A stretch of DNA of 64,000 nucleotides from an uncultured Clostridia bacterium (GTDB taxonomy: Bacteria; Bacillota; Clostridia; Christensenellales; UBA1242), in contig CAKVHF010000001.1 in NCBI GenBank assembly GCA_934748015.1, positions 80,918 to 144,917 on the forward strand, given 5' to 3'. The stretch itself is not shown here. Continued below: a report on this DNA, generated by a model with database tools.

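Follow-up and report, generated by a model that had tools for sequence, protein, structure and literature searches.

The terminal module (44962..45612, forward strand) occupies exactly the last 217 codons of a single uninterrupted open reading frame of 9,461 codons plus stop (17230..45615, forward strand), where it follows a Gly/Ser/Thr-rich linker (44863..44961, forward strand; HTAQDQEKAPSTAGGSTSGETELGSGSNLNKNS, ...KAPSTAGGSTSGETELGSGSNLNKNS), just as the original prediction, made from the sequence without database searches, had placed it. The giant gene is intact and conserved, with syntenic orthologs likewise intact at 9,443, 9,453 and 9,480 amino acids in independent assemblies, and its beta-rich product, in which Asn, Gly, Ser, Thr, Tyr, Ile and Val abound, is predicted from its sequence to be a surface protein with a Sec-type signal and a lipobox. 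The lipid anchor that had been proposed for the N-terminus agrees with a PROSITE-style pattern: the N-terminal sequence MRKKLVAIIVLFLGAIMSLVGC (FLGAIMSLVGC) contains a lipoprotein signal peptide (17230..17295, forward strand), made up of MRKKLVAIIVLFLGAIMSLVG and the Cys that follows it, with the lipobox L-V-G-C, and conforms to the lipobox rule in that Cys22 lies within residues 15-35 and a Lys or Arg occurs among the first 7 residues. By this signal pattern the giant protein would be a bacterial lipoprotein, with lipidation predicted. The signal segment is the sole hydrophobic stretch of transmembrane strength in the giant protein, from which an LPXTG motif is absent.

The body that separates this signal from the module, 9,244 amino acids in length, gives zero sequence matches in Pfam, NCBIfam or the PDB, and the Pfam and NCBIfam searches find in it no RHS, filamentous hemagglutinin, LXG, WXG, PAAR or TPS-type domains. 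Irregular GG[LIV][VIA]G repeats, about 50 by motif count, extend over residues ~4339-8716 (30244..43389, forward strand) at a spacing of 26-55 amino acids, and comparison of the giant protein with itself by BLAST reveals weak internal similarity only, at residues ~4000-4400 and 6000-8700. The repeats are GLUG-like to the eye. The GLUG label that had been attached to the fiber nevertheless fails, as the Pfam GLUG model (PF07581) finds nothing in the body, where only GG[LIV][VIA]G recurs: there is no match at E ≤ 10 in pieces of 1,601 and 1,000 amino acids from the repeat zone, nor in the related protein of locus L001 (a fragment from another assembly), and none at E ≤ 0.1 in halves of the protein. 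A word-indexed homology search with the end of the stalk (residues ~8741-9244) returned nothing; the index appears not to reach giant proteins.

For the module itself, sequence, profile and structure searches converge on one clan, although each similarity score is weak. Pfam NLPC_P60 (PF00877) is its top match (18.0-18.4 bits, E = 0.002-0.003, below the cut-off of 23) and is also the top Pfam match in 4 of the 6 family members tested, with a best E-value of 5e-4, while Pfam CHAP (PF05257) comes second, its 13.5-14 bits (E = 0.07-0.1) lying below a cut-off of 26. In searches of PDB sequences, both with the single sequence and with the family profile, the best matches are Spr/MepS and CwlO (E 0.17-1), in whose alignments DC pairs with DC and HVxIY with HVGIY, and two further NlpC/P60 entries appear lower in the ranking. 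Alignment of the family profile with MepS by hhalign (the MepS sequence used being identical to 8xud chain I) yields a probability of 68% and an E-value of 4.7e-5 over the Cys-to-His segment, with RHVAI aligned to RHVGI.

The predicted structure points in the same direction. An AlphaFold2 (AF2) model from the single sequence was unusable (pLDDT 33); with a 19-sequence alignment the model reaches a pTM of 0.64 and a mean pLDDT of 63.6, rising to 76-89 in the core. The module is laid out as N-terminal helices, a hypervariable insert (module residues 29-100) and a conserved catalytic core (~100-217), in which the model places the Cys at the opening of helix 120-132, the His in strand 165-176 and the Asp at the end of strand 179-183. 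A Cys at the start of a helix and a His on a strand constitute the canonical papain-like arrangement (PMC10318531). When the model is compared with the PDB by Foldseek, the top 27 matches are all Gsp/trypanothione amidase (CHAP) or NlpC/P60 structures, E. coli glutathionylspermidine (Gsp) amidase coming first, followed by MepS, trypanothione synthetase-amidase and several NlpC/P60 proteins; the best match (E = 1.6e-3, probability 1.0, TM ~0.35) is of marginal significance and was obtained with a partly disordered query. The ‘GD' motif on strand beta1 that is a hallmark of the NlpC/P60-CHAP cluster (PMC10318531) is reduced in the module to a Gly (G155 of the module, LPGAVV), which is invariant in a 6-copy alignment and is followed in the family copies compared by A, S, M or T, never by D. 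The module also contains 8 cysteines.

Taken together, the module is very probably a papain-fold domain of the NlpC/P60-CHAP clan. The weak single scores with their one shared direction, together with the loss of the ‘GD' motif, lead us to file it at clan level (Pfam clan CL0125), as what would be a new family there and not a member of PF00877. The NlpC/P60 identity originally claimed is in this respect half right: Foldseek and hhalign uphold it for the clan, and a score of 18 bits, where 23 are required, denies it for PF00877. The two checks that had been proposed for it give similarly divided answers, since HMMER puts NLPC_P60 at the head of the Pfam matches but under its gathering cut-off, with CHAP likewise below its own cut-off of 26, and Foldseek returns both NlpC/P60 and CHAP neighbors of the predicted structure but only at marginal E-values of 1.6e-3 or higher.

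The strongest argument, as read from aligned sequences, is the conservation of the putative active site. The segment IYSDCFGFVRIVQ sets the Cys at position 9364, DKHVAIYLY sets the His at 9412, 48 residues downstream, and FIDQQ provides Asp9428 and Gln9429. The Cys and His singled out in the original prediction at this spacing are both invariant in 19 homologous copies of the domain, at 18-39% identity to the window copy, and the same holds for D9363, G9366, L/Y9417-8 and D9428; Gln9429 is nearly invariant in the family. Asp9363-Cys9364 (45316..45321, forward strand) holds the predicted nucleophile, at the point where the core helix begins, on the combined evidence of conservation, alignment and the AF2 model, and His9412 (45463..45465, forward strand), within KHVAIYLY, is the predicted general base and aligns to the His of RHVGIYI in MepS. 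Asp9428 (45511..45513, forward strand), 16 residues beyond the His, is inferred as the candidate third residue of the triad from its conservation and its position at a strand end in the AF2 model; none of the profile alignments reaches it. With the proposed triad Cys9364, His9412 and Asp9428 the module appears catalytically intact by motif, and we consider it likely to be an active enzyme.

The family to which the module belongs is small and so far unannotated. Run exhaustively over 1.84 billion representative proteins, phmmer recovered only four relatives, and a profile search recovered 15, none of which has a Pfam assignment. In all about 20 family members are known, two Clostridia metagenome-assembled genomes (MAGs) being among their sources; it was these exhaustive and profile scans that found the relatives, the word-indexed homology search with the module alone having returned nothing. 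Members occur in two contexts. Some are stand-alone proteins of 276-352 amino acids (~290), in which an N-terminal signal or anchor is followed by a Ser/Asn-rich spacer, a helical subdomain with the sequence LSGNYLTAY and the core, and which are predicted to be secreted or tethered to the membrane. Their genes have no conserved neighbor and no immunity-like partner, the adjacent genes being mutually unrelated and of housekeeping type (acyltransferase, NUDIX, LemA, Toastrack, GIY-YIG, NDK and CofD). Other copies form the C-terminus of giants that have a lipobox and abound in GGxxG repeats. One of these is the giant protein of the window; the related protein P0002 (7,551 amino acids, lipobox FFVAC with Cys23) ends in two tandem copies of the module, and the L001 protein, a contig-truncated fragment of 1,357 amino acids from a goat-cecum Clostridia MAG, carries many AGGxVG repeats with the module at its end. 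A phage origin or kinship with endolysins was also considered and rejected, as viral contigs yielded no relative, and comparison with viral models (BFVD) by Foldseek gives only weak matches to NlpC/P60, C51 and CHAP proteins.

The giant gene is located in the core chromosome, behind a ribosomal-protein/secY/rpoA cluster, with a promoter-like site and a terminator of its own. Upstream lie the genes for S3, L6, SecY, Adk, Map, S13, S4, RpoA and L17, then a shikimate-kinase-like gene and a transketolase gene, 3' of which a terminator-like hairpin (16818-16855) suggests that the giant gene is a separate transcription unit. The promoter-like sequence TTGACA-17 nt-TATAAT (17116..17144, forward strand) matches the consensus at 12/12 positions, as a pattern match only, in a region where such sites are no more numerous than in shuffled sequence, and the ribosome-binding site AAGGGTGA stands immediately before the ATG at 17230. 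At the other end, a bidirectional hairpin terminator (45636..45676, assigned to neither strand; A8-GATTGAGAAAT / ATTTCTCAATC-T6, MFE -24.9 kcal/mol, z = -4.35) separates the giant gene from a convergent gene for a 449-residue protein, and marks where the variable cassette described below ends on its 3' side. Further downstream are a gene for a PBP5-type D,D-carboxypeptidase (1.9 kb from the giant gene), four genes whose proteins have no Pfam match, and those for PlsX and RNase III. A check for a tRNA or mobile-element context found no tRNA within the window and core genes on both flanks.

Comparison of syntenic loci from other assemblies, found via variants of the downstream 1,186-residue protein, shows that the module is an allelic cassette, of which at least three alleles have been swapped by recombination within an otherwise 96-100% identical protein. 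The modules fall into three discrete types, allele A being that of the window and of loci L003, L004 and L009, allele B that of loci L010-L015 and of the related protein P0001, and allele C that of locus L016, modules of one allele being 100% identical and those of different alleles 39-51%; the active-site motifs (D-C, G, H, LY and D) are kept in all three. Between the same strains the flanking 449-residue and PBP5 proteins are 95-99% identical and the last ~3,100 residues of the stalk mostly 90-100% identical. The cassette (44886..45634, forward strand) is delimited by a fall in DNA identity between alleles A and B from 98-100% to ~45-60%. Its 5' edge lies at ~44886, in the linker region, in L010 and at ~45036 in L014, and at its 3' edge (~45634) identity is regained just past the stop codon, before the terminator.

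Near the start of the module a conserved junction motif, GGNYLMCLGALQMC (residues 9258-9271; 45001..45042, forward strand), is common to alleles A and B and in part to C, and has its counterpart in the LSGNYLTAY helix of the stand-alone members. Loci L014 and L015 are recombinants in which the allele switches at the 3' end of this motif. Allele A agrees at 849/849 nucleotides between the window and L009, against 98.6% and 95.6% identity for the flanks, which suggests a recent exchange, under selection. Most of the divergence and the indels between alleles are found in module residues 29-100, the low-confidence part of the AF2 model. The module is not the only variable part of the protein: a second mosaic block in the stalk (residues ~8941-9216; 44050..44785, forward strand) diverges in L009, which has the same terminal allele as the window, and further strain-variable blocks occur at residues 6466-6564 and 7565-7764. 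A tblastn comparison covering the window and 16 related loci detected no extra, orphan or silent cassettes. The only gene adjacent to the cassette, that for the 449-residue protein, was examined as a possible immunity gene and rejected: it is convergent, and its identity between strains of alleles A and B remains at 95-98%.

In the account that we favor, the protein would pass through Sec and become lipidated at Cys22, keeping its N-terminus in the cytoplasmic membrane, and the beta-rich body of some 9,200 residues would form an extended surface fiber. The terminal enzyme would cut an amide or peptide bond in the stem peptides of peptidoglycan outside the producer's membrane, a bond that may be gamma-glutamyl or D,L as in the nearest relatives, and its target or recognizer would be a variable, non-self partner, such as a neighbor's wall in contact-dependent attachment or lysis, and not a matter of routine housekeeping. 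A variable non-self partner is favored by the combination of deep polymorphism with a fixed active site, and the signs of recent allele exchange likewise speak for an exposed module that encounters a variable partner. As a whole (clan hydrolase, lipid-anchored fiber, peptidoglycan cleavage and variable non-self partner) this account seems to us about evenly balanced, and the same even chance applies to peptidoglycan as the substrate when that point is taken by itself. Action on non-self walls, likewise taken by itself, is a tentative proposition that falls somewhat short of even. The ‘distal tip' geometry is an assumption of the model, since Sec releases the C-terminus last, beside the membrane. 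We regard as unlikely a new kind of contact-dependent weapon or grappling device, belonging to uncultured low-GC bacteria, in which a lipid-anchored fiber of ~0.1-0.4 µm would apply a strain-variable peptidoglycan amidase to the walls of neighbors, with self-protection through geometry or the chemistry of the producer's wall and with cassettes that track their targets. The interpretation first advanced, of an NlpC/P60 tip on a lipid-anchored GLUG fiber directed against foreign envelopes, is partly supported by these results.

The place of the C-terminus, last out of the Sec channel and near both membrane and wall, would suit an enzyme that works on its own cell, cutting the producer's peptidoglycan locally so that the fiber threads through or spreads over a thick wall of Gram-positive type, or serving as a long-tethered autolysin. 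Most characterized NlpC/P60 and CHAP enzymes are indeed autolysins, with N-terminal targeting and a C-terminal catalytic domain (PMC10318531), and self-directed remodeling is also in keeping with the housekeeping surroundings of the stand-alone members, which lack an immunity-like partner, with the absence of an immunity gene adjoining the giant gene, and with the PBP5-type D,D-carboxypeptidase gene 1.9 kb downstream. Three alleles at 39-51% identity between flanks at 95-99% are, however, unexpected for a housekeeping autolysin, and the identity of allele A in strains with differing flanks, which suggests recent exchange under selection, also speaks against self-directed remodeling, a reading that we consider rather unlikely. 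The polymorphism may instead amount to generic surface variation, given that other blocks of the stalk (residues 6466-6564, 7565-7764 and 8941-9216) are also mosaic: the protein would be a fiber resembling an adhesin or phage receptor, under diversifying selection by host IgA or phage, the module would have a non-peptidoglycan substrate (a host or dietary glycoprotein, for instance, or another protein) or mainly a binding role, and the alleles would represent antigenic or receptor escape and not target specificity. One relative does come from a goat-cecum MAG, the hypervariable part is the poorly modeled insert (29-100) and not the core, and the clan includes non-peptidoglycan amidases, among them the Gsp amidase that is the best structural match. 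This explanation is nonetheless improbable in our estimation, as the active-site residues are strictly kept across the alleles and the family, which indicates that catalysis matters, and the best sequence matches are peptidoglycan endopeptidases.

A conserved stalk, a sharply bounded variable C-terminal cassette and a conserved junction motif would also be the marks of a classical polymorphic-toxin or contact-dependent inhibition (CDI) system, in which the module is delivered into kin competitors and sister cells are protected by a cognate immunity protein encoded elsewhere, and Tox-NlpC/P60 domains are documented in such toxins (PMC3482391). The locus fits such a system poorly in other respects: no co-oriented gene lies downstream and the adjacent gene does not co-vary, a single fold is found in all alleles with neither unrelated toxin domains nor orphan cassettes, and RHS, LXG, TPS or other trafficking domains are lacking, so that we hold this explanation to be very unlikely. 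That the motif has arisen by chance, or that the module is a degenerate pseudo-enzyme with no catalytic role, is scarcely credible; each database score is, taken singly, below threshold, but one set of residues is retained without change throughout 19 copies with 18-39% identity to the window copy, independent sequence, profile and structure searches agree on one clan, and the 28-kb open reading frame stays open in several strains.

Compared with the NlpC/P60 D,L-endopeptidases (E. coli MepS/Spr, B. subtilis CwlO/LytF and Listeria p60), the module shares the D-C-x-G-F-V motif at the start of a helix, the interval of ~50 residues, the (R/K)-H-V-x-I-Y motif and a polar third residue. MepS is itself a lipoprotein. 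The module differs from these enzymes in its third residue, an Asp at His +16 where theirs is a His at +12, in ~100 further N-terminal residues that make up a helical and hypervariable subdomain, and in its attachment to a stalk of 9,244 residues in place of LysM, SH3 or coiled-coil targeting domains. The closest structural matches of the AF2 model are CHAP amidases, a group comprising E. coli Gsp amidase (3a2y/2io8), trypanothione synthetase-amidase and the phage and staphylococcal CHAP lysins. Gsp amidase has a Cys-His-acidic triad (Cys59, His131 and Glu147) in which the His-to-acid spacing of 16 residues equals that of the module, whereas the motif at the module's Cys is D-C, of the NlpC/P60 type and unlike CHAP. 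The substrate of Gsp amidase is a cytoplasmic thiol conjugate, which makes it implausible for an exported module. Glutathionylspermidine, lipids and proteins are also among the substrates of clan relatives.

Among systems with a comparable architecture, CdiA and WapA consist of a long filament with a conserved body and a polymorphic C-terminal domain after a junction motif, and their tips, which are mostly nucleases or pore-formers, belong to many folds. To our knowledge a cognate immunity gene stands behind every such tip. The giant gene has the same logic of conserved stalk, variable tip and junction motif, but neither tips of many folds nor a cognate immunity gene. Tox-NlpC/P60 toxins are associated with RHS repeats and with delivery by T6SS, PVC or TcdB/TcaC, and are found in Bacteroidetes and delta-proteobacteria (Zhang et al., 2012; PMC3482391). 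In common with these toxins and with the T6SS amidase effectors Tse1/Tae, the giant protein has a long stalk whose very C-terminal end is a papain-fold peptidase with C, H and D residues, and in common with polymorphic toxins generally its C-terminal module is strain-variable and recombined, with action on a target wall predicted; it differs from them in its Sec/lipobox signal, its body devoid of Pfam domains, the single fold of its alleles and the lack of a linked immunity gene. In its way of working the module resembles an NlpC/P60 or CHAP amidase placed at the end of a long surface stalk, and its nearest parallels are the Tox-NlpC/P60 polymorphic toxins, with CdiA and WapA also close, though of the traits that define polymorphic toxins the module shows the strain-variable C-terminus and is without the immunity gene, the fold diversity and the trafficking domains.

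Giant genes of Omnitrophota and others encode proteins of >30,000 amino acids with many transmembrane regions and SecA-like helicase domains, for which a part in degrading cell walls has been suggested (West-Roberts et al., 2023; bioRxiv 10.1101/2023.11.21.568195). NlpC/P60, lipoproteins and GLUG go unmentioned in that work (bioRxiv 10.1101/2023.11.21.568195). The present protein resembles the Omnitrophota giants in the idea of a giant surface protein with wall-degrading or attachment domains for use against other cells, and is unlike them in having one N-terminal lipobox signal and none of their domains.

The module establishes within the NlpC/P60-CHAP clan a family that had so far escaped annotation, and offers one functional handle on an otherwise completely dark protein of 9,461 residues. 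We know of no description of a lipoprotein-anchored giant fiber without a linked immunity gene among CDI, WapA, Rhs or T6/T7 effector systems. The interest of the locus rests on the rarity of the family, on the dark stalk of 9.2 thousand residues and, above all, on the three-allele cassette. Should the alleles turn out to have different muralytic specificities or to lyse different bacteria, the giant protein would be a device for contact-dependent antagonism or attachment; should the module do no more than remodel the wall of its producer, the locus would encode an ordinary autolysin or adhesin, if an extreme one. The three-allele cassette is in effect a natural experiment, and provides a direct experimental route to the function of the protein.

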